A DNA stretch of 64,000 nucleotides from Eledone cirrhosa (GCA_964016885.1 OZ024749.1:36332001-36396000), one strand, 5' to 3'. Positions 6,701 to 60,589 are shown, counted from the first letter of the stretch. A program made the numbers and translations. The notes: generated by a model not told the origin, from the sequence alone.

Positions 6701-7853
6701 TTGTTATACTTGGGGAGGGTCATATTTGTGTAATAATGTTGCCAGAAATAATAACAGAACAGAACACACTCACTGTTTGGTTGGTTTTCGCCTCTGTGTC
6801 TTTTATATCGGTTAATTTAATTTATTCGGTCCTCAATGTTACCATTGACTGACCAACGGTCAAAAATACAGATACAATATAGACACAAACACACATATAT
6901 ATAGTCTAACAAAGTTCTTTCATTGCACATCTGCAACATCATCAGTGGTGCTATTATGTTTCCTCCCGTTGCATTGTATGCCTACGCCATCTTTATTTAG
7001 TCTGTTTATTTATTTATTTATTTGTTTTTGTTTTTTTTTGTCTTCTCTGCGCATGCGTTTGCGTGTGTGTATAGTGTTTTGTTTGATGTGTGTTCGTGTT
7101 TGGGTGACTGTGTATTGGTTATTGTATTCTATCTTAGTTTACTAGTGTGTGTTTATATGTGTTTGTTGTTATTGTGCTTGTGTATGTATGTATTTATTTA
7201 TTTATTTATACTTCTCTTAGGTCAGTGTTGTTTGTTTGGGTGTTGTTGTTATTCCATTCATTTTTTCTGTTTAGCCTTGGCCTTCTAAGTTCTATATAGA
7301 ACTTAGAAGTATAAATAAATAAATACATACACAAGCACAATAACAACAAACACATATAAACACACACTAGTAAACTAAGATAGAATACAATAACCAATAC
7401 ACAGTCACCCAAACACGAACACACATCAAACAAAACACTATACACACACGCAAACACATGCGCAGAGAAGACACAAAAAACAAATAAATAAATAAATAGA
7501 CTAAATAAAGATGGCGTAGGCATACAATGCAATTGGAGGAAACATAATAGCACCACTGATGATGTTGCAGATGTGCAACGAAAGAACTTTGATAGACTAT
7601 ATATATGTGTGTTTGTGTCTATATTGTATCTGTATTTTTGACCGTTGGTCAGTCAATGGTAACATTGAGGACCGAATAAATTAAATTAACCGATATAAAA
7701 GACACAGAGGCGAAAACCAACCAAACAGTGAGTGTGTTCTGTTATTATTTCTGGCAGCATTATTACACAAATATGACCCTCTCCAAGTATAACAATATTT
7801 GTTTCGACACACATTTCATATAAAAAACCTCGCAAAACTAATTCATCGCCATT
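6701..7853 (+). mobile_element. Large fold-back element (Penelope-like inverted pLTR architecture)
   Basis: Inverted arms 6701-7215 and 7305-7795, unpaired tail 7796-7853, (TA)n on both sides. Hammerhead-like core at 7556-7583. Confidence 0.75.
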
Positions 7854-8971
7854 TATATATATATATATAAATTTTAGTACAGCATTGACGAAGCTCTAGT
7901 ATACGGCCAAGCTAGCGTATATGCATATTCGGTTTGTAGCTTTAGCACTCAGATGAGGTAAGACCCCAGAGTAATAACATTATGTTCAAACAGCTTAGCA
8001 AATCAGATATAGCGGTCGGCAGTCCAGCCGCATCACTAGAGCAACGAAAATACATGACCCAGGAAAAGATTTTATTCTGACCTGGACATAACGGTGAGGC
8101 TGAGTGTAAAATATATAACTTACATCGTGTATCCACAATATAGATCACAATATCACATCCAACATCAGCGCTAAGTTTCTGTAAATCCAAGATTGACAAA
8201 TTCCTATTGCAGGAGTCTGCAATATAATGGTTTTTGACGACAGAACATAGGATTTACTTCTTCAGCAAGTCTTTCGTTCTTAGTCAAAGCGGGTATGTTG
8301 TAACTTTAAAGGTCGCCACAGACATGTGGTTTTCTCCAAGGGAGGTAACCCCCGATACCTACATGTGTTTGTGTAGCAGATGTAGAGAGAGGTGGGGGCA
8401 GGAGTGTGATGTACAGTTTAATGTGGTGTATGTATGTGTGTATGTAGTAGTAGTAGTAGTAGAAAGGTATAGAAATGAGAGAGAGAGGGGGGAGGGCAGA
8501 AGGCAGAGATGTTGTTTGTTGATGTGGTGTGTCACCTTAGGGTTGGTAGCTTTTATCTCATCTGTCTTGGTGTGGTGAAGAAGATTCTGGGATAAACTGT
8601 CACAGGATGGTGGTGGTGGTGGGGGGGGGGGGGGGGATAGTGGTTTGGGGGGGGGGGGGGGTGAGAGTAGTGATGGCAATGGTGGTGATGATGGTAGTGG
8701 CGGCAGTGGTGGTGATGATGGTGGTAGTAGTGATGGTGGTGGTAGTGATAGCAGTGAAGGTAGTGATGGCGATGATGATGATGATGATGTGGAAGTGGTG
8801 GCGTTTAACAAAGCGCAATATGTTTAACACCAATTATTATACATGGTGGTGTAGTGAGATGTTGTTTATGACATTGATACACAGGCTATATAATATATAT
8901 ATATATATATATATACACAAGTGTGTGTGTGTGTATATATACACACACACACACGTGTTTATATATATGTG

Positions 8972-9045
<74 letters not shown>

Positions 9046-9331
9046 AGTGTTGTACCACACACACACACACAGGAAGAAGCCCTCTACATTAAAACAGTTA
9101 TAATCTGTCAGTAATCTATTTAATGTGGAGGGGGGGGGGGGTAATAGATGGTTATATTGTTTGCTTACAGTAAATGTCTTTAACCTTACCCCCCCCCCCA
9201 CTCTGCCCCCCTCCTCTCTCTCTATCTCTCTCACTATCTATCTATCTTATCTGTCTGTCTAACACTAATCTGACTATCACTGTCTCTTTCCTAATGTCCC
9301 AACAGCAATATATAGTTTGATATTGGCTTAT

Positions 9332-9368
<37 letters not shown>

Positions 9369-10249
9369 CATATATACACACTCACACACAGACATATACA
9401 CACTCACGCACACATATACACACTCACGCACACATATACACACTCACGCACACATATACACACTCACACATACATATACACACATACACATACATATATA
9501 CACTCACGCACACATATGCACACTCACGCACACATGCACAGCCATGCACTCACACACAAATATACGCACATAAATATGCACACACATACACAGTCACTCA
9601 CACATATATACACAGTCACGCATACACACACTCGCATATTTACACACATACACACACACTCACACATTTACACACACACACTCACACATATATACGCACA
9701 TACACACACTCACATATACACACATACACACACTCACATATACACACATACAGTCACACATACACACATACACACACTCACACATATATACACACACATA
9801 CACTCACACATATATACACACATACACACACTCACACATATATACACACATACACACACTCACACATATATACACACATACACACATATATACACACATA
9901 CACACACTCACACATGAATACATACATGTCTGTATGTGTATATCTGTAAAGGTGTTCAATTACTGAGATTTCCTTCAAACGACAAAGTAGTTAGAAATGT
10001 ATGTTGAGGACTATATGTTTATGGTTGTGTGTTGTCTAGAAGTGTGTGTATATAGATGTGTTTTACAGGTGTGTATATTATTTACGTCTCTCTCTCTCTC
10101 TCTCTTTGTCTGAAGTTGTGTACATATATTTCTATATAAACATGTCTCTTGATTTATAACATGTTACTGTTGATGTTGTTGTTGATGTAATTCCGAAGAA
10201 ACCATATATATCAAAGAAATTCTTCCATCAATCTCTGTTATTCCTCGCT

Positions 10250-10950
10250 CGCTCTCTCTCTCTCTCTCCTCCCCATCACTCTCTCTCTCTCCTCCCCATC
10301 ACTCTCTCTCTCTCCTCCCCATCACTCTCTCTCTCTCCTCCCCATCACTCTCTCTCTCTCCTCCCCATCATTCTCTCTCTCTCCTCCCCATCATTCTCTC
10401 TCTCGCCTCCCCATCATTCTCTCTCTCGCCTCCCCATCATTCTCTCTCTCTCTCTCCTCCACCCCATCACTCTCTCTCTCTCTCTCCTCCACCCCATCAC
10501 TCTCTCTCTCTCTTCCTCCTCACCACTCTCTCTCTCTCTTCCTCCCCACCACTCTCCCTCTCTTCCTCCCCACCACTCTCTCTCTCTTCCTCCCCATCAC
10601 TCTCTCTCTCTCTCCTCCCCATCACTCTCTCTCTCTCTCCTCCATCACTCTCTCTCTCCTCCCCATCTCTCTCTCTCTCCTCCCCATCTCTCTCTCTCTC
10701 CTCCCCATCTCTCTCTCTCTCTCCTCCCCATCACTCTCTCTCTCTCCTCCCCATCACTCTCTCTCTCTCCTCCTCCCCATCACTCTCTCTCTCTCTCCTC
10801 CCCATCACTCTCTCTCTCTCTCCTCCCCATCACTCTCTCTCTCTCTCCTCCCCATCACTCTCTCTCTCTCTCCTCCCCATCACTCTCTCTCTCTCTCCTC
10901 CCCATCACTCTCTCTCTCTCTCCTCCCCATCACTCTCTCTCTCTCTCCTC
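10250..10950. repeat. Polypyrimidine minisatellite
   Basis: ctccccatca(ct)n units of about 22-24 bp. Confidence 0.9.
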
Positions 10951-11163
10951 CTCATCTCTTTTTTCTCCATATCTCTCTCTCCCTCTCCCTCTCTCTCCCC
11001 TCTCCTGCTTCTCTTGTTAAATAATCCTTCCATTGATATTCATTCATTCATCTCAATCAAATACACAAATTTATTTCCACTTAACTTTCTTCTCGCTTTT
11101 CTCTCCAGCTTTCTGTCTTTTTTATTTATTTATTTACTTCCTTTCTTACTACTTTCATGGACG

Positions 11164-11215
<52 letters not shown>

Positions 11216-11586
11216 ATATAGTTTGTGCATATGTGTGTGTGTTGACTGTAAGTTGTGTCAAAACTATTTTTAAATATGAGCTATTCAGCGATAATATTGT
11301 TACATGTACATGAAGGTATATATATATATATATGTATGTATATCTATGTGTGTGTATGTATGTATGCATATATATATATATATATTAGGGTGTTAAGCTC
11401 ATGGTCGTGTGTTCGATTCCTCGACTGGACATCTTGTTATATTCTGGAGCATGATACCTTATTTCCTGTTGCCCCAGTCCTCTCAACTGAAAAAAAAAAT
11501 TCAGTTATGATAACACTATGATAACCAAGCTGTATCAGCTTTTTCCTTTGTCACATCATATATAATATATATGTGGTATATATAGA

Positions 11587-11624
<38 letters not shown>

Positions 11625-11654
11625 TCATCATTTCATTTCATTTATATATATATA

Positions 11655-11998
11655 TCATCATCATTTCATTTCATTTTACGTCCGCTTTTTCCCTGCTTCC
11701 AAGGGTGGGACGGGAACTGATTCTGGCTTGATTTCTACAGCTGGATGCCCTTCCTAACACCAACCTCATTTACAGTGAGTGCTGGGTGCTTTTTTGCCAT
11801 GGCACCTCCACGACCACTTTACAGTGGAATGATAGGAACCCCAGTCCCTATCATCTCATTTCTACAGCTGAGTAAACTGGAGCAATGTGAAATAAAGTGT
11901 CTTGCTCAAGGAAACAACACATCACCCGGTCTGAGAATTGAACTCACAACCTTTTGATTGCAAGGCCAATGCTCTAACCACTAAGCCATGTGCCTCCA
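11655..11998 (-). mobile_element. tRNA-derived SINE family A
   Basis: Near-identical to 6345-6688, inserted in (TA)n. Confidence 0.9.
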
Positions 11999-12010
11999 CA
12001 TATATATATA

Positions 12011-12195
12011 TAGAAGTGGTTACACAACAGTTAGTTCAGCATACCGAGAACAATTGTTTCACCTTAGCGGATCTTCAGCTCGCTAAGGTGAAACAATTGT
12101 TCTCGGTATGGTGAACTAACTGTTGTGTAACCACTTCTACCTAACTCGTCTGAGTGCTCTACTACTATGGATATTACCTTCCGGTGTTCTACCAC
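12011..12195 (+). mobile_element. Short fold-back element with hammerhead motif
   Basis: Arms 12011-12069 and 12081-12139, 56-bp tail, (TA)n flanks. Homologous to 60213-60351. Confidence 0.8.
12045..12082 (-). ncRNA. Minimal type I hammerhead ribozyme motif
   Basis: Minus strand cgag CTGAAGA t cc gctaa gg t GAAAC aatt GTT ctcg. Palindromic loop III. Confidence 0.65.
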
Positions 12196-12221
12196 TATAT
12201 ATATATATATATATATATAAA

Positions 12222-12378
12222 GAAAATGTTTAACCCCGACACCAGAGCTCAAGCCGTCGAAATGGCTTGAGCTCTGCCGTCGGGGTTAAACATTTTCCTA
12301 TGACCCACTCTACTACCCTAAGTATCGGGTACTCTGGTGCGTTATGGTCCATCTGGTTCCTTACCACACCTCCTTCGT

Positions 12379-12379
<1 letters not shown>
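12222..12379 (+). mobile_element. Short fold-back element (family of 22720 and 51737)
   Basis: Arms 12222-12255 and 12264-12297, ~82-bp tail, (TA)n flanks. Confidence 0.8.
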
Positions 12380-12409
<30 letters not shown>

Positions 12410-12625
12410 ATATGGATTTCGATGACCCAGGTGCCAAGTTGTATTAGTCTTTCTTTCATTTGGACAACATCATTCATAGCATAGCGAAGGTAAACTGGCA
12501 GGTATGAACAACTACTTGTCTTCAACAAGACACCTTACACTGCCTTGTGACTCAGGGAGGAACTTTCATTGTATCAACCCATGGTCAGTCCTGGTTGAAG
12601 GAGGTCTAGGAAGATATATGTATAT

Positions 12626-12782
12626 CCTTTTAGCATTTAAACCATCCATATCTGGCCAGAATTCTCTCACCTTTTTCTGTTCAAACTCGCTGTAACCAGT
12701 TGTTCATACTTATGTTAAGGTTTTGTATAATTATGTAAGATAAAAAGTCTTTACCACAAAAACAATAGTAAATGCTAAAGGG
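12626..12782 (+). mobile_element. piggyBac-type MITE, internally deleted copy
   Basis: ccttttagcattta...taaatgctaaaggg-TTAA with the same interior. Confidence 0.8.
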
Positions 12783-13315
12783 TTAAAGGTGGACATGTTC
12801 GAGACCATTGAAAAGTGAAGAGAAATCATAGACATAAATTTAATTTTTAGGACTCAGGTTGCTGGTTTATGGTTAAAAGATTTTATTTTGAACTTAAATG
12901 ATGCAATTATGCACATGATGGAAGAAATGTGACAGAGCTGCTTATAGGAATCAAACTATATATCTGTTGCTAACCAGTCAACTGTATAGATCACAGCATT
13001 AAGTTGACCTGACAGATTTGTAACATCATATATATGTGTGTGTGTATGTGTATATATGCATATATATATACATGTGTTTGTGTATATATATATATATATA
13101 TATGTACATATATATATATGTGTATGTGTATATATATATGTACATATATATGTGTATGTGTATATATATATGTACATATATATGTGAATGTATATCTCTC
13201 TCTCACTCTCTCTCTCTCTCTTATATGAGTGTGTGTATATATGGGCATATATATGTGTGCATATATATATGTATGTGTGCATGTATAAATACATGTGTGT
13301 GTGCACGCGTGCATG

Positions 13316-13348
<33 letters not shown>

Positions 13349-13699
13349 TTCTATATTTATGCAAACATAAATTGAAAAACTTATTGGAAAGAACAAAAGA
13401 TAAAGGGGAAGTGGAGTTGTGTGGTGTAAAAATGTGAGATCAACAACAACTATATTATAATTATGCTAATTATGATGTTTTTGAGTTCAAGTGTTATGCT
13501 TCAAACAACCTTAACTATCAAATGATATCAAAGACATAATTGAAATATTTCTCATAAATCAAGTTTGAGCGTAACATCATCATCATTATCAGGCCAACTA
13601 GGTTGCCACTTGGGGCACATCACTCAACTTAAATCATCAAACATACACTGTGTTCTACCATTGATATTATTTACACACTGACACACATGCCCAGTGTTG

Positions 13700-13955
13700 T
13701 AATGAGGCAATGCTGGTGCTATCATAAAATGCACTCAGCTCACCATGTAAGGTGATAGTGCTGATGTCATAGTAAAATGCACCCAGTCTACTCTGTAAAG
13801 TGGCTGGTGTTAGGAAGGGCATGCAGCTGTAGAAAACAAGCCAAAATCAGACCATACATGCAAGGCATGGTTGGTCACTTGACTCATCTAGGTTCATCCA
13901 GTACATGACAACAAATTTAATCCATGGAAAATAGCCAGGAAACAGCAATGGTGAT
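13700..13955 (+). mobile_element. Degenerate RTE/SINE 3' tail
   Basis: Two 48-bp units followed by ggtgttaggaagggcatgcagctgtagaaa. Confidence 0.7.
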
Positions 13956-13957
13956 CT

Positions 13958-14004
<47 letters not shown>

Positions 14005-15284
14005 GGGCTTCCTTATAGGTTTTGTCTACTAAATTTTACTCACAAGCATTGGTCAGCCCAAGGCTAGATTAGATGTTCAAGGTTTCATGCAGTGGGAGTG
14101 AACCTTATGTTTACCTATCTATATACCTATCTGTCTGTCTATCTGTCTATCTGCCTATCTAGCTACATATCAGTCTGTCTGTCTGTTTGTCCATCTATCT
14201 AGCTATCTATATGTTTATGTTTACCTATCTTTCTATCTACTTCTCTATCTCTCCCTCTCTCTATACATACATTTCCTCATGTTACAAACTTCTTGTTCAT
14301 CACCACCACCACCACCACCACCACCACCTGAGACTGTATGACACCACCATCACTACATTAGAGTTTGTACACCGTTACCACCACACCTGAGTCCTACCAT
14401 CATCACATGACCAATTTCTAACAAGTTACATGCTATATTAGACATTTCATCAAATCACTTCACTAAAACTTTCTTTACCTCTCCCTCTATCTCACCTCTA
14501 GCTCACCTTCTCTATCTTGCTCTCTTACTCTCTTACCCTCTCTCTCCCTTTCTACCCCTCTACCTCTATCTCTTCCTCTCTTTCACCCTATCTCTTCCCC
14601 CCTCTCTCTCTCTATCTTTCCTCCTCTCCCCCTCATCTTTGATCTATTTTCTCTAAGTCCTTTTCTTCCCTATTGAAAGAATGTTGCCTGGAATTGAACA
14701 GATACCTCACTTCCTCTGATTAAAGATAGGAACTTGGTGAGGTGCAAAGGTAGAGAGAGGATAGAATGGAATAGTGGTGGTGGTGGTGGTGGGTGGGTGG
14801 AGAGGATGGTAGTGGTGTAGTGGAATGGCAAAGAGAATGTGGTGTGGGTGAGGTGTGTGTGATAGGGAGTGAGGAGAGTGTGGTGTGGTGTGGTGTGAGC
14901 GGGGATGGAGAAGATAGAATAAGGTGTGGTTGGGAATAGGAGGAGGAAAGGTGTGGTGGTGAAGAGGGGGGGGGGGATTGGAGTAGGATGGAATAATGAA
15001 GAGAGAGGGGCGGGTGGAGGAGAGAAGAGAATTAATAAAACAAAAGGACTTGAAATTGAAAATAACTTATATTTAACAAATCTGATAGCACTTGTTATTG
15101 TTGCAATTTTTGTTGTTGTTGTTGTTGTTGTTGTTTCTCCTGGGGCTACAACCTTCATCACCTCCTCCTTCCTCTCACCCTTCTTCTGATCCTCCCCCCT
15201 CCCCCCACACTCCTACTACAAACCATCTTTTTACTAAATATAACTTTACTGAGAATAAAACATATTTTACACATACATACATAT

Positions 15285-15315
<31 letters not shown>

Positions 15316-16458
15316 CATATATATATATATGTGTGTATGTGTATATATATGCATATGTACATATATATGTGTGTGTATGTATGTGTGCATTTATATATAT
15401 ACATATATCTGAAAATGCATGCATATACATACACATATAAATAAAAAATTTCTAATTATATATTTAGTTGTTTACATTGCTGTTGTTGTTGTTGTTGCTG
15501 TTGTTGTTGTTGTTGTTGTTGTTGTTGCTGTTGATTGTTTCGTCAATCAGTCAGTGATCTGTAAACACAACAGCTAGTGGAATGATGCTGTTGTTGTTGT
15601 TGTTGTTGTTGTTGTATCTGTTATTACTATTGTTGTTATATATATATGTTATTAATGTTGTTGTGGATGTTGTTAGTTGTTGTACATGTTGTTGTTGTTG
15701 TTACTACTGTACATGTGGTTATTGCTGTTGTTGCTGACATTGATGTTACTGTTGTTGTTGTTACTCTTGTAGCTGTTATTGTTGTTGTTGTTACTCTTGT
15801 AGCTGTTATTGTTGTTGTTGTTGCTGTTGTTGTTACTGTTGTTATTATTAATGTTGTTGTTGTTACTATATAGCCCCAGGCCGTCCCTAATGGACAGAGC
15901 TACGATCAAAGCTATTCCTTCCATGCCCAACATGTTTTTTTAGAAGTCCCCAACATTACATTATCTACTGTATCTTTCCATTCTTTAAGGTGGAGGGTTT
16001 TTTTAGCTGCTATTTCTAGCAAGTTAACTGACTACATAGAAGCCCTCAGACCTCTCTTATGGATTTGTAGTTAATGATGATAATGATGACAGTGGTGATG
16101 GTGGTGATAGTGATGATAGTAATGGTGATAGTGATGGTGGTGTGGGGTGTGGGGTGGGGGTGGATGTAATGGTGTTGGTGATGATGGTGATAGTGATGAT
16201 AGTAATGGTGATGGTGGTGGTGGTAATGGTGATAGTGATGATGGTGGTAATGATAATAGTGGTAGTGATGATGGTGATGATGGTGATGATGATGATGATA
16301 ATGATGGTGGTGATGGTGATGATGATGATGGTGACATTGTTTTTTAAAAATATCTTTTGTACTCTAACTTTTGATCACCCCCTCTTCTCTCTCTCTATAG
16401 CTGCACAGTAGCACAACTCAGATGTATACCTCTCTCCCTCTCTCTCCCTCTCTCTCCC

Positions 16459-16500
<42 letters not shown>

Positions 16501-17125
16501 TCTTTCTCTCTCTCTCTCTTGTCCTTCGCTCTCTTTTTTTCCATTCTTCTCACTCTTCCTTTTCCTTTTTTCCTCTCTTTCTCCTCTCCTCACCCTCTTT
16601 CTCTCTCTCCACACACACCACTATCACTGTTATTACTAATACACCACCACCACCACCACACCACAACACCACCAACACACCTCAACTATACAACCAACAC
16701 CACTATTACACCTCAACTACTGCCACTACTACTACACCACTACTATACCACCACTACTACACCACCACTACTGCCACTATTACAACACCACTACCACACC
16801 ACCACTACCGCTACTACACCACCATTATACCACCACTACTATACCACCACTACTGCCACTATTACAACACCACTACCACAACACCACTACCTCTACTACA
16901 CCACCATTATACCATCCATGTGTGTATGAAGACAGACAAAGCCATGTATTTCGTAGTTCCACATGGGTGCACCTGCTACTGCAGTAATGTGCACTGATGC
17001 ACACACATGCATACATATATATATATATATATACAAACACATATATACATACATGCACACATACGCACTCTCTTACTCTCACATATAGTTACACCGTTAC
17101 TGCACTCTTGTAACTAACACTAACA

Positions 17126-17163
<38 letters not shown>

Positions 17164-17276
17164 AACTACTACTACTACTACCGGTACTACTACTACTACT
17201 ACTACTATTACTACTGTTGCTGCTACAACCGGTACTACTGTTGCCACTACTACTACTGCAACTACTACTACTGTTG

Positions 17277-20460: not shown

Positions 20461-21099
20461 GTTGTGAGATGGTCATCTCGTCTATTATGCTGTTGTCTTG
20501 TAATGGTGTGGTGTGCTCTGTTGAGGTCATCATCTCATCTATTGATATGATATCTTGCAATGGTGTGTTGTGGCGTGTCTTGGTCTGTTATACTGTGAAG
20601 TGATTGTGTGGTCAGTTGCGTTGTGTTTTCATATGTGTGTAATGTTGTGGTGTGGTGTTGTGTTGTCAGATGTGTATTGTTGTGTCAGAGGTGTGTTGTG
20701 TTGGCAGCGGTATATAGTGTTAAGGCCCTGTTGTGTTGTCAGATGTGTTTTGTGTTATCAGAGATGTGTTGCGTTTGCCTCTGACCCTGAATGCTTCATT
20801 TACGTACTCACAGAGTATATTTTTTGTAGAGTCATCTTTGTCAATTAAAAACATATGCACTTATAGTTGGGTCATCCACTTTAACTGAGGGAGGAGGGAA
20901 AGCACCTCCTTCCTTTCTCCTTCTCTTCCAAGAAAGTGAGGTCACCTTGATGTAAGAGGTCAGAGTAACAACAACAAACTGACATCAACAGCTCTGATAC
21001 AGAATCAGCAACAATAACAACAGTATTAAAAACTCAGCCGTAACAACAGTGATAACAACTGCCAAAATACATAACGTCAGACAACATTTAGATATATAA

Positions 21100-21280
21100 C
21101 CCATGCTAGCATGGAAAATGGATGTTAAATGATGATGATAAGGACATTTATATCATCATCGTTTAACGTCCATTTTCCATGCTAGCATGTGTTAGACTGG
21201 TTGTCCTATTAGAGGCAAGTCAGGTCAGGTGACCATGTCTTGCTCATATAGAACTGTTTCTGGCTAGGTTTGTACAGCAT
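21100..21280. mobile_element. Two RTE 3' ends arranged tail-to-tail
   Basis: ccatgctagcatggaaaatggatgttaaatgatgatgat is followed by its reverse complement tcatcatcgtttaacgtccattttccatgctagcatg. Confidence 0.75.
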
Positions 21281-22719: not shown

Positions 22720-22723
<4 letters not shown>

Positions 22724-22920
22724 AACGAGTAGGACCCCGACGGCTGAGCTCAAGCCGTTTCGACGGCTAATTCTGGACTAAAGCTCCAGAATTAGCCGTT
22801 GAAACAGCTTGAGCTCAGCCGTCGGGGTCCTACTCGTTCCTATTACCCACTCTACTACCCTAAGTATTGAGTACTTTGGTGCGTTATGGTCCACCCGGTT
22901 CCTTACCACATTTCCTTTGT
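22720..22920 (+). mobile_element. Short fold-back element
   Basis: Arms 22720-22777 and 22785-22842, ~78-bp tail, (TA)n flanks. Confidence 0.82.
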
Positions 22921-24874: not shown

Positions 24875-25452
24875 ATGGAATTCTGTGTAGTATTTTTCAA
24901 GTTTAAAATTTTATGAATTCTGCTTGTTTCATATCTGAAGAAGAGCGAAGAAAGGATGATGAAGTTAAGAACTGAAGTTTTTTGGGTTTTTTTTTACTGA
25001 AAAACGGCAGATAAATCTCTGTGTTTCATGTCAGGAAAGATAGGAGGGAGGGGTTGAAGTTTATTATTATCATATTTATCATGGGGGGTGGGGGTGGTTG
25101 GAGACGTATAATTTCAACCCTACCTCTGTATCTTTCTCTCCTCTCTTTTAAAACTATATTTTCCTCCACCAATAAAATATGTTATTATATAACTTGAAAT
25201 ATTTCATTGAATTATGTGGAGGTTTTTCAATATAAAACATCATTTCTCAACAGGAAGCTATTAGCACACACACACACACACACACACATTGCTCCTGCTG
25301 TATGTATATATCTGGGCATATATTGTGTATGTGTATATGGGTGTCTGTCTGTCTGTATATATTATAATGTTTGTGTGCCTATGTGTCTGTCTGCCAGTCT
25401 GTATATATTAGTGTTTGTATCTATGTGTATATTTTGTTTTCTCTGAGTAGTG

Positions 25453-30594: not shown

Positions 30595-31070
30595 TGTGCG
30601 GGGACATAGAAATAGTCGGGCTGGACACCCGATCGCGCGGTTCAACCACTGGGAGTGAAGGACCCCTAGTCTTTGTCAGGACATTCTTCTAAGAGAAGGC
30701 AACTCAGGAAACTGGGATAACTCCGATATAAAACCTGCGGCTCAGTAGTTACCGATGATGTTGATCTTTTCTTCTTTTAGGGTTATAGCTACTGTCGCTC
30801 AGAGAGTGGGATTGGCTCAGTGCACAGTCTTTCCTCACTTAAAAAAATATCTTCATGCACAGGCATTGCACGATAGAATTAATTAATAATTATTAATAAT
30901 GGTATATCGTGCAATGGCCATACTCGATAACTTAGTAAACTTTGATCATAGGTCTGTAGTACTATGGGTGACCTAGGGCTAAAGAAACACCAACACCACA
31001 GTTCCCTCTCCTTCCTCCATATAACACATCATAGGTTTACTGTGCCATGGTCGACCTAGGGCTAAACAAC
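30595..31070 (+). mobile_element. Probable internally deleted non-autonomous LINE-derived element
   Basis: GC/CpG-richer island with a hairpin (cattgcacgata...tatcgtgcaatg) and a twice-repeated end gacctagggctaaa. No ORF, and the family assignment is tentative. Confidence 0.4.
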
Positions 31071-33608: not shown

Positions 33609-33612
<4 letters not shown>

Positions 33613-33864
33613 TAATAATAATAAATTTGAAGACTAAAATCCATAAGGATAAATGTATATCAAATATATAAGAACCCTAGAGCAAATATTTATTAAAATA
33701 ACAGATTAAAGTTTAAGCAAAGAATCGCTGCTTTCACCCTTAACGGCATCTTCTGAAACTAAAAAAATCAATCTGTGAACGCAGAAGTAAATATTTCGAA
33801 AAACGTTGCAACCGAAGGAAGACAGGAAGACGATACTTTGGTTAAACTTTAATCTGTTATTTTA

Positions 33865-33871
<7 letters not shown>
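33609..33871 (-). mobile_element. Fold-back element (family of 56730)
   Basis: Arms 33687-33716 and 33842-33871, with the tail on the left. Reverse complement matches 56764-56912. Confidence 0.75.
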
Positions 33872-41362: not shown

Positions 41363-41786
41363 GTATATATATTGTATATACATTACATTAATCCACCCGC
41401 TATATATTATTTGGTTGTCAAGTATGAAATTTGTAGAAATTTGTTATTTTTTTCTGCAAATATCTACAAATTTCATACTTGACGACCCAATAGATATAAA
41501 TCTGTAGGTTTGTTGTATTGATCTCCCCCCCCCCATCTCCCACCCTTGCGCACGCACACACACATACACACAGACACACACAGAAAAGCCCATTGAAGCT
41601 GCACCACCACCACCACCACCACCACAAACCTATCATTCCACTTGTTTTCATCTTCCATTGTCCTTCTATCTATAAACTTAGGTGTGCTGGGGTGTGTTGT
41701 ATTATAGTGTTGAGATCTGGTGTGTTGTGGGGCTGTATGATGTGGTTGTGTGAAGTCGTAATATGGTCTGGTGTTGTGACATGACA

Positions 41787-47612: not shown

Positions 47613-48263
47613 AAATGTCACCTGTTATTCCTCTGTCTTTATGTGGTATTTCTTCCCCTCATGTCGTGTCAGTGAAGGAATGTTAAATTCTGGGGCTGAA
47701 GAGAAGCCAGGGTCCCTGTTGAATGTGGTTGTGGTGAACAGATGATGGGTGTGTCATGGAGGGGGGGGGGGGGGGTTACACAAGATGAAGAGGTGATGTA
47801 AAAAAAAAACGAACACAGATATATAGATATATGTGTTCAAATCGTAAGGGACCTGATTCGCTAAGGTGAAAAGAATGCTAACTATAGACAATTGGGTTTG
47901 CTTGTCTCAATTTAAGAAAAAAAAATTAAGAAAATAAATACAAACCGGAATTGTGGTAACTACCACTCACCCAGACAACTTGTTGTTTCGCAAAGTTAAT
48001 TCTGAATAGAAATACCAACCCAAGCTCATCAGTGGGTGATGAATTAGTATCCTAGACACATCTAAGTATGCTATATATAAAATAGCACACATGGCATCCT
48101 AGCTTGTCTCACAAACCCATATATGCATATATATATATATATATATTAATAAGAGGAATTCCAACTTTGTCTGATTTACTCGTTTTATTTACAATCCTTT
48201 AAAATATATATAATGGTATTATAATGAAATAGTATGATAGAATATTAAATTCTAAGTGTTAAT

Positions 48264-48302
48264 TGAACAAGTACTTTCATGCTTTCGCAATCTTCAGGTT
48301 CA
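48264..48302 (-). ncRNA. Minimal type I hammerhead ribozyme motif (mirror copy)
   Basis: Minus strand tgaac CTGAAGA t tgc gaaa gca t GAAA gtac TT gttca. Confidence 0.68.
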
Positions 48303-48369
48303 TGATATGTGGTGACAGTCGAGTTTGCAATTTTCAGAAAATTGCAAACTCGACTGTCACCACATATCA

Positions 48370-48408
48370 TGAACCTGAAGATTGCAAAAGCATGAAAGTA
48401 CTTGTTCA
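48370..48408 (+). ncRNA. Minimal type I hammerhead ribozyme motif
   Basis: tgaac CTGAAGA t tgc aaaa gca t GAAA gtac TT gttca. Palindromic stem III/loop AGTACT. Confidence 0.7.
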
Positions 48409-48632
48409 ATTAACACTTAGAATTTAATATTCTATCATACTATTTCATTATAATACCATTATATATATTTTAAAGGATTGTAAATAAAACGAGTAAATCA
48501 GACAAAGTTGGAATTCCTCTTATTAATATAATCTTCTATACACAATCATACACACCCGTGTATATTTACCTATCTATATCTATATATATATATATATATA
48601 TATGCATATATATATATGCATATATGTATATA

Positions 48633-51736: not shown

Positions 51737-51946
51737 TAGGAACCAGTAAGACCCCGACAGCTGAGCTCAAGCCGTTTCGACGGCTAATTCTGGACTAAAA
51801 ATAGTTTTTAGTCCAGAATTAGCCGTCGAAACGGCTTGAGCTCAGCTGTCGGGGTCTTACTGGTTCCTATTACCCACTCTACTACCTCAAGTATTGAGTA
51901 CTCTGGTGCGTTATGGTCCACCTGGTTCCTTACCACATTTCCTTCG

Positions 51947-51948
<2 letters not shown>
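51737..51948 (+). mobile_element. Short fold-back element with perfect 65-bp arms
   Basis: Arms 51737-51801 and 51805-51869, 3-nt loop, ~79-bp tail, (TA)n flanks. Confidence 0.85.
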
Positions 51949-51995
<47 letters not shown>

Positions 51996-52171
51996 TTTAT
52001 TTGCACACGTGTGTGTGTGTGTGTGTGTGTGGAATATGTGTATACATGTACATGTGTGTGTATGTGTATGTATATATATATATACGTGTGTGTGTGTATG
52101 TGTGCATATAAGTATATATATATGTATATATAATATAATATAAATATAAAAGTATATATTTGTGTGTACAC

Positions 52172-52212
<41 letters not shown>

Positions 52213-52394
52213 GATAAATCTACCAAAAGTTTAAAATATAAGGAACTGTTTCATTATTTTATTCATTATTTTTTTAATATTTTATATATATATATATACT
52301 TATATATATATATACTTATATAAATATATATATATACTTATATAAATATATATATATACTTATATATATATATATATATATACTTATATATATA

Positions 52395-53670
52395 TCATCA
52401 TCATCATCATCCACGGCCTAGAATCAAAAGGCCTTAAAATTAACCTAGCTAAGACTAAAGTTCTAGTTTGTAAGAAAGAAAATAAGGCGGCGGTCCCCTC
52501 CGGGAAGTGGCCATGCGCAGAGTGTAGGAAAGGCGTAGGTAGAAATTCCATTTTGTGTCCCAAATGCAAAGTTTGGGTGCATAAAAGATGTAGTGGGATC
52601 ACAGGTAAGCTAACTAAGAACATAGATTTTACATGTGGCCGGTGTTCTGGGAATATAAGTAGCAGCAAGTGCCCACAAAATACTAGCTCTTTCAACTGCG
52701 CAGAGGGTTCTATAGAAATAGTGGACAGCTTCCGTTACCTGGGTGACAAAATCACCAGTGGGGGAGGGTGCTCTGAAAGTACAGTAGCTAGAGTCAGAAC
52801 TGGGTGGAAAAAGTTCAGAGAGCTTATACCACTATTAGCCGCTAAAGGGTTCTCCCTAAAAATGAAAGGCAGGCTGTACGATGCCTGCATACGAACAGCA
52901 ATGTTGCATGGCAGTGAGACCTGGGCATTGTGTGCAGAGGATATACGCAGACTAGAGAGAAACGAAGCTTGCATACTCCGCTGGATGTGTAACAGTAATA
53001 TACGTGAACGGCAAAGCATAAACGAACTAAGGAAAAAATTAGAAATAAGAGGGATCAGATGTTGTTTACTAGAGAGAAGGCTACGTTGGTATAGTCACGT
53101 GATGCGCATGAAGGATGATAGCTGTATAACAAAGTGCAGGGCAATAAAGATAGACGGTAGCCACGGAATAGGCAGACCTAGAAAAACCTGGAACGAGCTG
53201 ATAAACTCCGACCTCACACACTTACACCTCACCAAGACAATGTCACTGGACCGAGACCTTTGGCGGTACTCAGTAATAGAGAAGACCCGCCTTGCCAGTA
53301 GGCATCTCTAACAAAATACACCCCGTCCCACCACCACCACCACCCCCACCCCATCCACACCACCCCGTTCTATGTAAAGTTATGTTGGTGCCGCGCCATC
53401 CAGGCCGAAACAAATGAGATCGTGTAGGTGTCACGACAAAAAAACACACAGTCCACGCTGTAATGTGGCCGTGTAGGCAACACGGTAAAAACCTCCCAGA
53501 CCCACACTGTAAATGTGGTTGGTGTTAGGAAGGGCATCCAACTGTAGAAAACCTGCCAGACAGTCCTATGCGAGCAAGAAAATCACTCTTGCCTCAAGTG
53601 GGACTACCCCCGTCCAAACCCATGCAAGCATGGAACACGGACGTTAAACGTTGATGATGATGATGATGAT
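52395..53670 (+). mobile_element. 5'-truncated RTE-clade LINE: end of ORF, 3'UTR and (GAT)n tail
   Basis: Open frame 52412-53311, then a structured 3'UTR ending acgttaaacgtt(gat)n. Flanked by a ~185-bp direct duplication. Confidence 0.92.
52412..53311 (+). CDS. C-terminal part of RTE LINE polyprotein (end of RT, PHD finger, thumb/C-terminal region), no start codon
   Basis: GLKINLAKTKVL, a C4HC3 motif, IEIVDSFRYLG, MLHGSETW, RRLRWYSHVMRM and GRPRKTW are typical RTE motifs. No stop codon over 299 codons. Confidence 0.9.
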   Translation, partial: HGLESKGLKINLAKTKVLVCKKENKAAVPSGKWPCAECRKGVGRNSILCPKCKVWVHKRCSGITGKLTKNIDFTCGRCSGNISSSKCPQNTSSFNCAEGSIEIVDSFRYLGDKITSGGGCSESTVARVRTGWKKFRELIPLLAAKGFSLKMKGRLYDACIRTAMLHGSETWALCAEDIRRLERNEACILRWMCNSNIRERQSINELRKKLEIRGIRCCLLERRLRWYSHVMRMKDDSCITKCRAIKIDGSHGIGRPRKTWNELINSDLTHLHLTKTMSLDRDLWRYSVIEKTRLASRHL

Positions 53671-53901
53671 ATATATATATGTAGATAAATCTACCAAAAG
53701 TTTAAAATATAAGGAACTGTTTCATTATTTTATTCATTATTTTTTTAATATTTTATATATATATATATACTTATATATATATATACTTATATAAATATAT
53801 ATATATATACTTATATAAATATATATATATACTTATATATATATATATATACTTATATATATATACTTATATAAATATATACTTATATATATATATATAC
53901 T

Positions 53902-53942
<41 letters not shown>

Positions 53943-54159
53943 TTATATAAATATATATATATATATACTTATATAAATATATATATATATATACTTATAT
54001 AAATATATATATATATATACTTATATAAATATATATACTCTTTTACTCTTTTACCTGTTTCAGCCATCCGGCTGAGGCCATGCTGGGGCACCATATATAT
54101 ACTTATATAAATATATATATATATATACTTATATAAATATATATATATATATATATACT

Positions 54160-54191
<32 letters not shown>

Positions 54192-54193
54192 CT

Positions 54194-54229
<36 letters not shown>

Positions 54230-54786
54230 CTTATATATATATATATATACACATACATATACTTATATATATATACACATACATATACATATATATATAT
54301 ATATGTATAGCAGTAGAAGTGAATGTGTTTAACCATTCTTAAATTGTGCTCTACTTATTGCATTATTATCTTACTGGGTCCGACAATTATCTTGCTGCCC
54401 TAATATGGAATTACGAAAACTAAGTTGGTACTATTTACCACTATAGTGCAGCAAAAATATCTGTTGGACTGTTAATGTTCGCTCGAGCGAATTACATCTC
54501 TCTTTGACTTCATAATTCCTATTACCGAGTTGTAATAGCTTGCTGCTGCTGCTACTGTTGTTGGTGTGGTGGTGGTTGGTGGTGGTTGTCCTCGTTCTTC
54601 TTGTAATAGCTTTTGTCTTAAGTAAAATTGAAAAATACTTTGTGTGAAGCTTTGCTAGAGGCCAAGGTATTATGATGAAGAATACTTGTGTTGTGGCTTC
54701 ATGTTGTTGTTGTTGTTGTTGTGGTTGTGCCACATCTTCACTACAGCAGCTAATATATGTGTGGGCAGGCTATATGTGTGCGTGTA

Positions 54787-54828
<42 letters not shown>

Positions 54829-54913
54829 TGCGTGTGTGTGTGTGTGTATAATTTTGTATCCACTTTGATGATGAACCGCACATGTATATGTATATTTATG
54901 TATGTACACACAC

Positions 54914-54967
<54 letters not shown>

Positions 54968-55354
54968 AAACACACACAAACACGTGTGTGTGTGTGTGTA
55001 AATGTATATATGATTATGATGGCAATTATATGTAAGAGTCCAGCTTAAACTGGCAGAAAGTTCACAAAGGAAAGTGCTAGAGTTTATTAATCAACAGCAC
55101 TCTCATAAAATGAAGTCCATCATAAAATACACACATACATACATATACACATATTCATATATACACATATACATACACATACGTACACACATACATACAT
55201 ATTCATATATACACATGTACATACATGTACGTACACACATACATATAGATACACACACATAGATACACATACATGCACACACATACATACACACACACAC
55301 ACACACACTTACAAACTTACATTCACACACACACACATACATCTCGATACATAG

Positions 55355-55413
<59 letters not shown>

Positions 55414-55570
55414 TACACACACACATACATACATGTACATATACACAGATACATATACATACTCACACACATACACATACATACACATATACATATACAC
55501 ACATACATACATGTACATATACATACACACACATACATACATGTACATATACACACAGATACATACACAT

Positions 55571-55626
<56 letters not shown>

Positions 55627-56005
55627 GTGTGTGTATGTACCTGTATATGTGCAGTTTCGTCTCTTTAAACATAACCAACACCATAGGAAGCAAGCAATGG
55701 AGGTGAAAATGAAGTCGACTAATATAATGAAAGCATAATATCTCATTATTTCTGCTGTGTTTCATGTAGTTCCTAATGATCTAACCATTGTCATCTCTTG
55801 TGAAACACTGCCACAGATATCCACTGTTTGTTCCTGGCACAGAAATCACTTTCGGTCATAGAAAGATTTGGGGGAGGGGGGGGTGCAAGCAAGAAGAAAA
55901 AAAAAATTAACAAATTTTAAAATCTACTTTTGTTTCCACTAAACTGGTTCCATGTGTGTGTATTTTTCTTGTGAAAACATATCTTTTGATGCATAACATG
56001 CATGT

Positions 56006-56006
56006 G

Positions 56007-56037
<31 letters not shown>

Positions 56038-56240
56038 TTAACGTCCCCGTTCCACGCGTGCATGGGTTTGGACGGGGGTTTTCCCACTTGAGGCAAGAGT
56101 GGTTGTCTTGCTCGCATAGGACTGTCTGGCGGGTTTTCTACAGCTGGATGCCCTTCCTAACACCAACCACGTTTACAGTGTTTGACTGGGAGGTTTTTAC
56201 CATGTTACCTACACGGCTACATTACAGCGTGGACTGTGTG
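56006..56240 (-). mobile_element. RTE 3'UTR fragment
   Basis: Reverse complement matches about 53450-53670, including the (GAT)n tail. Confidence 0.85.
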
Positions 56241-56333
56241 TATATATATACACACACACAAACATATAGGTATATATGTATTACATACACAAACACATAT
56301 ATATATATATATATATTTGATGCATGACATGCA

Positions 56334-56387
<54 letters not shown>

Positions 56388-56729
56388 CACACACACAAAC
56401 ATATAGGTATATATGTATTACATACACACACAAACATAGGTATATATGTATTACATACACACACACATATATATATATTTGATGCATAACATGCATGTGT
56501 GTGTGTGTATATATATATACACACACACAAACATATAGGTATATATGTATTACATACACACACACATATAAATATATATATATATGATGATGATGTATAT
56601 ATTTATATATATATGTGTTTATGTTTATGTATATATGTGTGTGTATGTATATATATGTATATATTATATATATATGTATATTATATATATATATGTATAT
56701 TATATATATATATATATGTATATTAATTT

Positions 56730-56912
56730 TTTATTAAAATAACAGATTAAAGTTTAAGCAAAAAGATCCCGTTAAGGGTGAAAGCAGCGATTCTTTGCTT
56801 AAACTTTAATCTGTTATTTTAATAAATATTTGCTCTTCGGTTCTTATATATTTGATATATATTTTCCTTATCGAGCCCTCTCTGGATTTTAGTCTTCAAT
56901 TTTATTATTACT
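56730..56912 (+). mobile_element. Fold-back element with a partial hammerhead core in the loop
   Basis: Arms 56730-56762 and 56794-56826, loop contains AGA t ccc gttaa ggg t GAAA, ~86-bp tail, TA-rich flanks. Confidence 0.75.
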
Positions 56913-58552
56913 ATATGTATATTATATATATATATGTATATTATATATATATATGTATATTATATATTTATATTATATATATATATGTATATATTATATA
57001 TATATGTATATTATATATATATATATGTATATTATATATATATATATGTATATTATATATATGTATATTATATATTTATATTATATATTTATATTATATA
57101 TATATGTATATATTATATATATATGTATATATTATATATATATGTATATTATATATATATATATGTATATTATATATATATATGTATATTATATATGTAT
57201 ATATATATGTATGCATGTGTATGTATATATGTGTGTGTGTATGTATATATATATGGGTATATATATAAATGTGTGTGTATATAATATAATATATATATAT
57301 ATATATATAATGTATATATATATGTATATAATGTATATATATGTATATAATGTATATATATGTATATAATGTATGTATATAATGTATATATATGTATATA
57401 ATGTATATATATGTATGTATAATGTATATATATGTATGTATATGTATACATATGTATATTAAGTATATGTATATTATGTATACATATGTATATTATGTAT
57501 ACATATGTATATTATGTCTATATATGTATATTATGTATACATATGTATATTATGTATATATATGTATATATATGTATACATATGTATACATATGTATATT
57601 ATGTATATATATGTATACATATGTATATTATGTATATGTATATTATGTATACATATGTATATTATGTATACATATGTATATTATGTATACATATGTATAT
57701 ATATGTATATATATGTATACATATGTATACATATGTATATTATGTATACATATGTATATATATGTATATTATGTATACATATGTATATTAAGTATATGTA
57801 TATTATGTATACATATGTATATTATGTATACATATGTATATTATGTATACATATGTATACATATGTATATATATGTATATTATGTATTATAAAACAACAT
57901 TGATGTCAATTGCTATAATTAACTTCAAAATGATTTCCATTTTATAGAATTGTTGGTTTCAGTATTTGAATTACTATCATCATCATCATCACTATAATAA
58001 CCAGCAACATCATCTTTGATGAGATGGTGGTGGTGTGGTGGTGGTTGTTGTTGTTGTAGATGCTGTTGTGGTGGTGGTGGTGTAGTTGTGGAGGTTGTTG
58101 GTAGTGGTGGTGGGGAGGAGCATTTTCTTATTGTTTCTTTGCAGTATTTATGCAAGGGAAAACTAGTGGTGGTGGTGTTGAAGGTGGTGTTGGTAGTGAT
58201 GGGTGAAGTAGTGGTGGTGGTGGTGGTGGTGGCATTGTTGAAGGTGGTGTTGGTAGTGATGGGTGAAGTAGTGGTGGTGGTGGTGGTGATGGTGGTGTTG
58301 GTAGTGATGGGTGAAGTAGTGGTGGTGGTGGTGGTGGTGGCATTGTTGAAGGTGGTGTTGGTAGTGATGGGTGAAGTAGTGGTGGTGGTGGTGGTGGTGG
58401 TGGTGGCAGTGATGGGTGAAGTAGTGGTGGTGGTGTTGGTGGTGGTGTCTGTTCTGTTTTCAATGTAAATTGATATTAAAATATAGTAGATTTTGTAATA
58501 ACTTGGTCTAAAAGAAAACTTCAAAATGAAGACAGCTTATGTCATTCTTGAT

Positions 58553-58840
58553 CTGGTGGTAGTGGTGGTATAGGCAGTGGTGGTGATGGTAATGGCAGTG
58601 GTGGTGGTGGTAGTGGTGGTGTAGGCAGTGGTGGTGATGGTAATGGCAGTGGTGGTGGTGGTGGTAGTGGTGGTGTAGGCAGTGGTGGTGATGGTAATGG
58701 CAGTGGTGGTGGTGGTGGTAGTGGTGGTGTAGGCAGTGGTGGTGATGGTAATGGCAGTGGTGGTGGTGGTGGTGGTAGTGGTGGTGTAGGCAGTGGTGGT
58801 GATGGTAATGGCAGTGGTGGTGGTGGTGGTGGTATTGGCA
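58553..58840. repeat. GGT-rich minisatellite, unit about 51-57 bp
   Basis: agtggtggtgtaggcagtggtggtgatggtaatggc(agt)(ggt)n repeated 5 times. Confidence 0.88.
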
Positions 58841-60212
58841 TAGTGGTATGGTGGCAGCAGTAGTCTACTGGTAGTGAAGGTATTGTAGTGGTGATATGAT
58901 GCTGACAGTACTGTAGTTTTGGCAGTGATGGCAGTGGTATTGTAGCGTTGGTGGTGGTAAGGTGATAGTAGTAGTAGTAGTAGTTCTGTGGCTGGTGGTG
59001 GCAGTGATAGTAATCTAGTAGGTAGTGTAGTGGTTTTGGTGTAGTAGTGGTGGTATTTTTAGTTATAATTGGGTAATGTTGATATGGTGGTGATTCAGGT
59101 AGTCGAAGAAGTGATGTGGTTGGGGTAGTAGTGGTGGTGGTGGTGGTATGTTTACTGGGGCGGAACTTACTTCAGGCTAAACAACAATATCAAGCAAGGA
59201 CACATTAGATAATGTAGTCCTAGTTGCACTGTGTCTGTAAAAAAAACATCACCACTACCACCACCATCCACCACCACCATCACCACCATCCATCACCACC
59301 ACCACCATCCATCACCACCACCACCATCACCAGTAACAATTGTGCAGCCACTTCTAACACCACCACCACCACTATCAACAACAGAACTACCACCATCATG
59401 ACCACTACAATGACCATAGACACTATCACCATTACCACCACCACCACTGCAACCATGTCCACAACCACCACCATAACCACCTTTACCACCACTACCACAA
59501 CCACCACATCCACTGTGATCATCTTCACCACCACCACCACCATGGCTATCACCACACACCATGACCACCACCACCACCACCACGGCTACCACCACCACCA
59601 CCATGGCTATCACCAGACACCATGACCACCACCACAGCTATCACCAGACATCATCATCACCACAACCACCACCACTACCACTACCTTGATCACCACCACC
59701 ACAACCACAACCATGACCACAACCACCACCACTACCACTACCTTGATCACCACCACAGCCACCACCACAACCCCCCCCCCCAGACTATCTCAATCAACCA
59801 AAGGTTAATTTCATTAGTATCTCCAATCTCCATCATTCTAATCACCTAACGAGGAATCATGATCGTTAAAAGGTCAACAAAACTATTTAACATTTTCACC
59901 TTAATGAACATTTGGGGGTTTTTTTATAAGTTTTCTTTAAGTTTTGTTTTGAATTTTATTTTCTAAATATTTTCTTTATTTAATTTTTATATAATTCGTT
60001 TGTTTCGCTAACTTTAAAATATCTTTTGTTTTAATTCTGTTGATGGTGTGATGGTGGTGGTGTGTTGGTGTGGTGTGTTGGTGGTGGTGTTGTGTTGTTG
60101 TGTTGTGTTGGTGTGTTGTGATGGTGTTGGTGGGGTTTGTTTTATTTGTAATTCTTTGCCTTTTATATATTTCTACTGCATTGTACCAATTTTCTGAAAC
60201 TTCCGATTTAAA

Positions 60213-60253
60213 CCGAGCTGATGATCCATTAAGGTGAAACAATTTGTCCTCGG
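60213..60253 (+). ncRNA. Minimal type I hammerhead ribozyme motif
   Basis: ccgag CTGATGA t cc attaa gg t GAAAC aattt GTC ctcgg. Stem I ccgag/ctcgg, complete core, GUC cleavage triplet. Confidence 0.75.
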
Positions 60254-60348
60254 AAATGGTAAACTAACTGTTGTAGAACTACTACTACCAAACTCATCCC
60301 ATGGACTGAGTGCTCTACCTCTGGATATAACCCACCAGTGTTCTGCCA

Positions 60349-60400
<52 letters not shown>

Positions 60401-60404
<4 letters not shown>

Positions 60405-60589
60405 AAGAAGTGTAAGTCAACAGGTTAAAATTAACTTCGTTTATATGAATAAACAAAGTTAATTTGAACCTGTTGATTTACACTTCTTGTTTTTAAATTG
60501 CTCTGGAGTAAACAGCACTTGTGCACCTCGTTGAGTGCTCTAACCTGCATACTGAAATGACTGTAACCAATCAACACATACTCAAATTT
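60401..60589 (+). mobile_element. Fold-back element
   Basis: Imperfect arms 60401-60444 and 60449-60492, ~97-bp tail, (TA)n flanks. Confidence 0.7.

Follow-up and report, generated by a model that had tools for sequence, protein, structure and literature searches.

The window analysed here is a stretch of 64,000 nt from Eledone cirrhosa (OZ024749.1:36332001-36396000), taken from a 3.0-Gb assembly; it has a GC content of 37.6%, is rich in (TA)n microsatellites and carries nine short fold-back inserts that derive from Penelope-like elements (PLEs). All nine were found where the original prediction had placed them, each with an arm, an inverted arm and an unpaired tail (Table 1), and we define their sense orientation as running from arm to tail. 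Rather than at least five families they form six, with three inserts in family C, two in E and one each in A, B, D and F, and the tail, given earlier as 30-97 nt, is family-specific at about 50-95 nt. That the families are unrelated holds for the DNA of their 3' ends, between which no significant similarity was found (best cross-family E 0.017), but not for their proteins, those of C and E being 52% identical. Other genome loci that were compared with the inserts carry L numbers (for example L435).

The inserts are 5'-truncated insertions of coding PLEs, and not the separate families devoid of an open reading frame (ORF) that had been proposed, because longer copies in every family lead upstream into a PLE ORF. 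A genome search found parents with reverse transcriptase (RT) and GIY-YIG endonuclease sequences for families A, C, D and E, and with degraded endonuclease frames for B and F, which bears out the Penelope-like origin. Both domains lie in a single ORF linked to the repeat, reached in A, B and F via partial or degraded frames only, and the endonuclease is C-terminal in every ORF read; neither the N-terminal endonuclease nor the lack of a canonical hammerhead that defines Naiad and Chlamys was found. The layout is that of endonuclease-bearing PLEs, with pseudo-long terminal repeats (pLTRs) from partial tandems, an inverted 5'-truncated copy and a one-sided tail, which continues into the ORF start in tandem copies of C, D and E. 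The family C frame, of 784 aa, is open in more than 30 of the best 150 matches and forms tandem units of 3,531 nt (L435/L436); its protein had no Pfam match, and a PDB sequence search with alignment returned nothing relevant, but its structural model (pLDDT 90.8) has telomerase RTs as its top two fold matches. Family E has a 713-aa frame in about 18 of the best 150 matches and, at L403, the order inverted arm, pLTR with tail, ORF, pLTR with tail. The family D parent has a 636-aa frame with a Pfam GIY-YIG match above cut-off and an RVT_1 match (E 3e-6, 27.6 bits) below the cut-off of 29.6. Family A yielded RT and endonuclease pieces that end 8 nt before the arm, and B and F only degraded endonuclease frames, the N-termini of all three not being recovered. 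A first look at the genome gave 10,597 GIY-YIG candidates, and further PLE families with long open RT and GIY-YIG frames were seen at L287, L289, L293 and L299 (938, 1096, 515 and 477 aa).

Table 1. Inserts and related repeats in the window, with arms, closest copies elsewhere in the genome and hammerhead motifs.
Position	Strand	Family and feature	Arms and junction	Closest copies	Hammerhead
6701-7853	+	A, Neptune-like PLE 3' end, hairpin and tail to 7853	Tail-less inverted arm 6701-7295, reaching 644 nt from 3' end, into last ORF codons; direct arm 7311-7795, reaching 550 nt; tail-less arm longer; 28-bp palindrome at junction, 7282-7309	93.1% identical to L241, whose RT-thumb and GIY-YIG frame stops 8 nt before arm	Core and helix II at 7556, weak helix I
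12012-12195	+	B, Hydra-like, hairpin and tail		80% identical to L225/L286, degraded GIY-YIG frame upstream in both	Complete at 12078 (-), tail-less arm only
12222-12378	+	C (Hydra clade), older subfamily, short hairpin and 77-nt tail		88% identical to ORF-linked L247	3' half only
22722-22920	+	C, hairpin and tail	Arms reach 140 and 135 nt from 3' end	94-95% identical to ORF-linked copies	3' half only
33609-33868	-	E (Hydra clade)	Arm with tail reaches 247 nt, inverted arm without tail 131 nt; arms overlap by 13 nt at junction	91% identical to full-length L403	Type I at 33755 (-), variant core CAGAAGA
48147-48580	+	D, Neptune-like, hairpin and 50-nt tail	Arms of ~190 bp, reaching ~245 nt	99.6% identical to L290 arm and tail, downstream of 636-aa RT and GIY-YIG frame	Complete, minimal type I at 48375 (+), mirrored at 48297 (-)
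51739-51947	+	C, young subfamily, hairpin and tail	Both arms reach 140 nt	99.3% identical to pLTR of intact 784-aa-frame tandem units L435-L439	3' half only
56730-56917	+	E, hairpin and 89-nt tail		96.7% identical to L402	Cut inside core
60402-60590	+	F (Hydra-like), hairpin and 95-nt tail, truncated 3' of family hammerhead			None
60206-60351	+	B, extra copy without inverted arm			Complete (core 60218)
47796-48119	-	G, seventh hammerhead-bearing repeat, adjoins D insert			Core 48032

The inserts are new members of known PLE clades, and their layout is itself already known: accounts of the inverted copy truncated at its 5' end, the one-sided tail, the hammerhead and the (TA)n bias are given in the available parts of PMC8557442 (Craig et al. 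2021), PMC3846280 and PMC8969392, and the same architecture appears in the Fig. 2 legend of PMC8557442. Clades were assigned by motifs and by-eye likeness rather than from an RT tree with reference elements. By their motifs, families C and E belong to the Hydra clade (LRWR; SDKTG; CNCPDRSIC or CNCRNRVDC; CNLC or CDLC; CKH; no CCHH), which according to the accessible text of PMC8557442 is characterized by one ORF with RT and C-terminal GIY-YIG, an RWK-like motif (RWR in C and E), DKT, CxCX5C, CxxC and CxH flanking the conserved E and N, without CCHH, a pLTR hammerhead and (TA)n insertion. They differ in their units of 3.53 and 3.26 kb, against generally <3 kb in that source, and in their variant hammerhead cores (U3-A8 or C3-A8 in C, CAGAAGA in E). 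Families B and F appear Hydra-like in part and, like the additional family G, carry some of the Hydra motifs in degraded frames: CGLC and CPH with a stop codon inside the linker in B, and CNCRNPLLC and CSLC in F, with no CxH in L319. Families A and D seem Neptune-like by their CX2-5CxxC linker, CCHH and, in D, DKG, with Nematis as the alternative clade, most of all for A. D has ADKGG, a CNDNRCGTC linker, CIKCPNC and CCHH, and A a CTYRKCIIC linker and CCHH residues; the Neptune rows in the supplementary alignments of PMC8557442 share DKG, the CX4CxxC linker and CCHH with D, their RT rows being similar by eye, and the linker and CCHH residues with A. Among the supplementary rows available there, four are labelled 'Octopus', and these are Naiad where shown.

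Both 3' ends of the inserts lie at fixed places. The tail measures 56 nt in A, 65-66 in B, 77 in C, 50 in D, 89 in E and 95 in F; the outer end of the inverted, tail-less arm is likewise fixed per family and falls on an internal TA in families A-E, where both ends lie at a TA dinucleotide. Pooled over loci, a TA run begins no more than about 6 nt from the 3' end in 236 of the 285 copies that keep this end intact, against 9.5% of random positions in the loci and 7.6% in the window, which upholds both the anticipated enrichment of (TA)n flanks and microsatellite targeting by PLE derivatives. Within the window the exceptions are the 33609 insert, flanked on its tail side by (CT)n and TATA, and the 56730 insert, which lies in a degenerate TA satellite. 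Raw reads from two restriction-site-associated DNA (RAD) libraries, further samples under the same species label, also show family C joined to (TA)n, at the tail start in 3,417 and 2,902 reads and at the tail end in 1,475 and 1,693, as well as its opposite-strand joints; a read run from another organism (X5) covered 11 of 29 bins and is not interpreted.

Each hairpin is probably the product of twin priming, one RNA having been reverse-transcribed from two points into opposite DNA strands. Both strands of a TA run would be nicked by the protein that the element encodes, and the RNA would be copied from two starts 50-95 nt apart, at the tail end and the tail start; both cDNAs would stop independently, be joined head to head by end joining (by microhomology, bluntly or with short templated inserts) and then be filled in. 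L1 twin priming likewise joins two cDNAs, each primed on a different strand of the target, head to head through microhomology, but its second primer pairs at internal positions that vary, and the resulting parts have no overlap. In the present inserts the second start keeps a fixed place close to the 3' end, which makes the arms overlap and form a palindrome.

Whole-genome searches with entire hairpins favour copies of equal length, and the claims about length therefore rest on a family C sample and on samples anchored at the tail-less end. The former comprised 40 hairpins (the first 41 distinct places minus one already used), picked by a pattern blind to which end bears the tail: 36 paired a TA end with a tail end, three another end with a tail end and one another end with a TA end, while tail/tail and TA/TA pairs were absent. 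Their junctions were distinct in 38 cases, so the hairpin is made anew at each insertion, as had been foreseen. Anchored on the tail-less end, C copies had a tail-bearing partner in 26 of 27 paired cases, and genome-wide the young C subfamily has 7,065 tail-less and 7,461 tail-bearing ends. Arm lengths are independent of each other. Among 142 copies with an inverted arm that terminates at the boundary of its family (some loci entered twice; rows with other outer arm ends were excluded as false chains or interrupted copies), the tail-less arm is at least 20 nt longer in 20, the tail arm longer in 23 and the two near-equal in 99. At L242, L068, L107, L298 and L460 the tail arm is shorter than the tail and the arms have no overlap at all, and the four-unit array L435/L436 ends tail-less while its 281-nt inverted arm bears the tail. 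Arms of one copy belong to the same subfamily and mismatch at 6.5, 5.1 and 0.6% in B, C and D, against 12.1, 9.1 and 2.1% between copies, and six mirrored private variants were found in family D where 0.01 were expected, so the arms come from one template or were later homogenised. The 142 junctions divide into 59 overlaps, 27 blunt joints and 56 inserts. Two primings at the tail boundaries on opposite strands explain all five of these anatomical points. Short re-copied stretches, resembling templated inserts, were seen at junctions in L340, L349, L366, L369, L012, L016 and L029, and long A/T runs occur in older family C copies.

A precedent exists in the Poseidon element PAc of Anolis carolinensis (Frangieh et al. 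2024, PMC11167929), in which two RT starts bound the tail, the tail lies at the pLTR-ORF junction and the protein, a predicted dimer, nicks and extends both strands at AT-rich DNA in vitro, hammerhead cleavage not being needed. The PAc tails measure 30-40 nt, against 50-95 nt here, and no strand difference in start site was found in that study; unlike those data, the genomic copies here show nearly always one start of each kind per hairpin, with TA microhomology at the starts. Second-strand synthesis was left open and the steps after priming unvalidated in PMC11167929. The family D element at L063 itself encodes (TA)5 between tail end and ORF start, through which its RNA could base-pair with the target. 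At L267:1585-1707 and L170:1609-1743, the sequence that follows the tail on its 3' side matches the complement of the tail start, as a predicted stem in family C and by eye in family E, and GAGCACT or its complement recurs near the tails of B, C, E and F; judged from sequence, complementarity to the tail start may draw the two start sites together.

Most arms of the young C subfamily are short. In samples of 30 young C and 30 D arms anchored on the tail-less end, the distance between the stop and the 3' end is 123-142 nt for 26 C arms and 241-255 nt for 17 D arms; for young C, some 2,487 arms run past the stop against about 14,500 arm ends, a comparison that is approximate because different 25-nt patterns were used. 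Hexamers resembling the initiator consensus occur only twice in the last 450 nt of C, at 142 and 138 and hence both at the stop, and twice in D, one of them (248) at the stop; B has one, at the upper edge of its cluster. We tentatively read the sharp stop in C and D as the 5' end of an RNA begun at a pLTR-internal initiator, with chances that are nearly balanced, and an internal promoter is reported for Drosophila virilis Penelope in the accessible part of PMC2377424. If priming took place at the tail copy closest to the 5' end of the mRNA, beside the ORF start, synthesis would then run off the 5' end of the RNA and leave thousands of mini-hairpins as by-products; copies with an ORF would stem from circular templates or from templates of several units. 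Some observations weigh against an initiator. If all RNAs simply began at 138, ORF-bearing C copies should have a 5' boundary at 123-142 nt, but not one of the 26 does, so that long copies need such templates; the initiator consensus was chosen after the stops were seen; and the sharp stop is established in C and D, with none for A, E or F. RT might also stall at a bound RNA structure. Hammerhead cleavage was rejected as the cause, its sites at 97 (C) and 177 (D) differing from the stops, as was a splice acceptor in C, where copies keep the AG and upstream bases. RAD read ends at 1532 with a 25-fold depth step coincide with AATT sites and are not evidence for the stop, the evidence from these reads being confined to loose ends and joints. 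Piles of 5' ends in E (382), F (337) and C (494-502, compared with L267) are likely reference artefacts, since E contains an internal duplication and the C pile was gone once the reference was matched.

It is unlikely that the hairpins arose instead by snap-back self-priming. In that case a cDNA would fold over at its 3' end, serve as its own template as far as the tail start and be rejoined to the target, and arm lengths would later be scrambled by asymmetric deletions in the middle of the palindrome. Such self-priming is the hypothesis published for inverted pLTRs, as the accessible part of PMC3846280 presents it, and the near-equal arms of most copies, the identical variants in both arms and the 28-bp palindrome at the junction of the 6701 insert all agree with it. 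Yet a fold-back copy cannot hold what its template lacks, and plain snap-back therefore fails, unless later deletions act, wherever the tail-less arm is the longer, in L435/L436 by >13 kb. Tail arms shorter than the tail occur even in young, 100%-identical copies (L460), and tail-less 3' ends terminate ORF-bearing arms (L436-L439). There are nonetheless points that count against twin priming. Long palindromes suffer asymmetric central deletions, which could make either arm look longer after snap-back, and the mirrored variants could stem from later conversion between the arms. The one-of-each rule is not absolute, as a few tail/tail pairs occur (L142, L223, L254, L306), and in family D only 9 of 19 paired partners lie within 4 nt of the tail end (the others being five at 5 nt, one at 15 nt and four interrupted or at the locus edge), with 6 of 30 D arms lacking a partner inside the locus. 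In the tally of 142, moreover, some loci count twice. On balance twin priming is favoured because it explains all five anatomical points and matches the in vitro behaviour of the Poseidon protein (PMC11167929).

The dominance of short arms in young C and their sharp stop could also be expected if the short forms were non-autonomous lineages comparable to short interspersed elements (SINEs), that is, pLTR-tail copies with an internal promoter, self-transcribed and mobilised in trans by a coding partner; internal PLE promoters are known (PMC2377424, in the part available), and non-autonomous PLE derivatives are described in what is accessible of PMC8557442 and 10.64898/2026.07.22.740005. We consider such lineages distinctly improbable, because the match between short and coding copies holds within each subfamily (99.3% and 99.6%), junctions are not inherited and solo copies lack the stretch 3' of the tail that is predicted in C to pair with the tail start, whereas the Poseidon protein depends on sequence past its start sites (PMC11167929). 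Hardly any probability attaches to assembly artefacts or to ordinary miniature inverted-repeat transposable elements (MITEs), whose inverted repeats are terminal and which duplicate a TA target, even though small size, palindromic form, TA flanks and abundance would fit. The one-sided tail keeps the inverted repeat from being terminal, the arms vary from about 10 bp to kilobases rather than showing the fixed-length terminal repeats and uniform size of MITEs, and the linkage of all families to PLE ORFs refutes MITEs, which would have no RT parent, in line with the original prediction; the ends into (TA)n and the opposite-strand joints in raw RAD reads from two samples argue against an artefact.

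A further, tentative proposal is that the hairpins reflect programmed double target-primed reverse transcription (TPRT). A dimer would prime one RNA at two fixed, TA-matched starts on opposite strands of a microsatellite, with run-off at the initiator when the starts beside the mRNA 5' end are engaged, and one active element could thus seed tens of thousands of perfect palindromes of 100-400 bp. If this were true, the layout would be the built-in reaction product of double TPRT, and the intact young Hydra elements, with their 784-aa frame and U3-A8 hammerhead, could be reconstituted as a TA-targeted writer of both DNA strands.

The hairpin anatomy at this scale is a real and testable clue to an open mechanism, one that we did not find in print; the available part of PMC8557442 names the origin of inverted and tandem PLE structures and the microsatellite preference as unresolved, and the thousands of mini-hairpins with a sharp 5' stop, a feature of families C and D, have no counterpart in that part. 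In a literature search that mostly excluded subscription journals, no PLE paper used the phrase 'twin priming' with Penelope, nothing specific to cephalopod PLEs or to PLE hairpins appeared, and no biochemical study of a Hydra-clade element was found. The genome holds thousands of young insertions (about 7,000 in C and about 1,600 in D) with countable ends and a junction, together with many identical intact Hydra-clade coding copies, and twin priming and snap-back are therefore directly testable against each other. The palindromes also resemble MITEs or microRNA (miRNA) hairpins in annotation, 12017-12133 for example matching MIR6217 below the Rfam threshold, and where they are transcribed, their thousands of long, perfect stems could contribute much double-stranded RNA.

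The expectation that the inserts mostly carry hammerheads stood in part (Table 1): the motif is complete in the D, B and 33609 inserts, with a core in the 6701 insert, and partial or absent in the others. The whole hammerhead is present in longer copies of C, E and F. Among core-reaching copies, our descriptor matched the sense arm in 2 of 23 in A (with weak helix I), 8 of 12 in B, 15 of 22 in C, 27 of 29 in D, 21 of 35 in E and 8 of 24 in F, and the antisense control gave 0 in all families; these counts are descriptive only, the descriptor having been relaxed twice after inspection, as its first two versions missed U-U or bulged helix II and variant cores. The final version also calls probable chance sites at 24935 and 48337, shuffles giving 0.2 per window. 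The C core is U3-A8, with a long helix II, in the young coding subfamily (L435:3676-3775) and has a C3-A8 mismatch in at least 14 copies of another subfamily (L253-L285), whereas the E core is CAGAAGA even in intact copies. The minimum-energy structure of L435 is the hammerhead; folding gave no significant z-score against shuffles in six hammerhead stretches, one of which (47985-48041) ended before the motif was complete. The proposed Rfam scan returned no hammerhead at gathering level among the matches listed (150 of 549 for the window, nearly all of them microsatellite-driven miRNA), and further scans gave a sub-threshold RAGATH-1 match (E 0.54) in one case and no match in another. In most window copies the truncation falls within the ribozyme or 3' of it and does not coincide with the cleavage sites, which fits cleavage being dispensable for insertion (PMC11167929). 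The inserts are single and inverted, with the ribozyme mostly truncated, and not the tandem arrays of short ORF-less hammerhead units by which non-LTR retrozymes are defined (10.64898/2026.07.22.740005).

The TA runs themselves are often shared. Different PLE families meet at 12196-12219 (B and C), 48127-48146 (G and D) and 60352-60401, where the extra B copy and the F insert sit on one common (TA)25 run, and such nesting recurs at many genome loci. Family G has a 7-bp helix I, and some of its 40 scored genome copies have inverted arms and Hydra-like ORF pieces. Near-identical SINE-like 3' ends at 6581-6687 and 11891-11999 each lead into (TA)n hit by a PLE (A and B, respectively), and the same end was seen at L135 and L167. 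The idea that the inserts lie inside one gene was not confirmed: with 36 of 84 candidate frames compared with Pfam, only a retroelement-like frame matched, the 321-aa frame at 52346-53308 (+), a fragment resembling a long interspersed element, with a weak PHD-finger match and related pieces in L251. Hairpins outside families A-F were also noted in the window at 41403-41498, 21097-21194 and 30864-30916.

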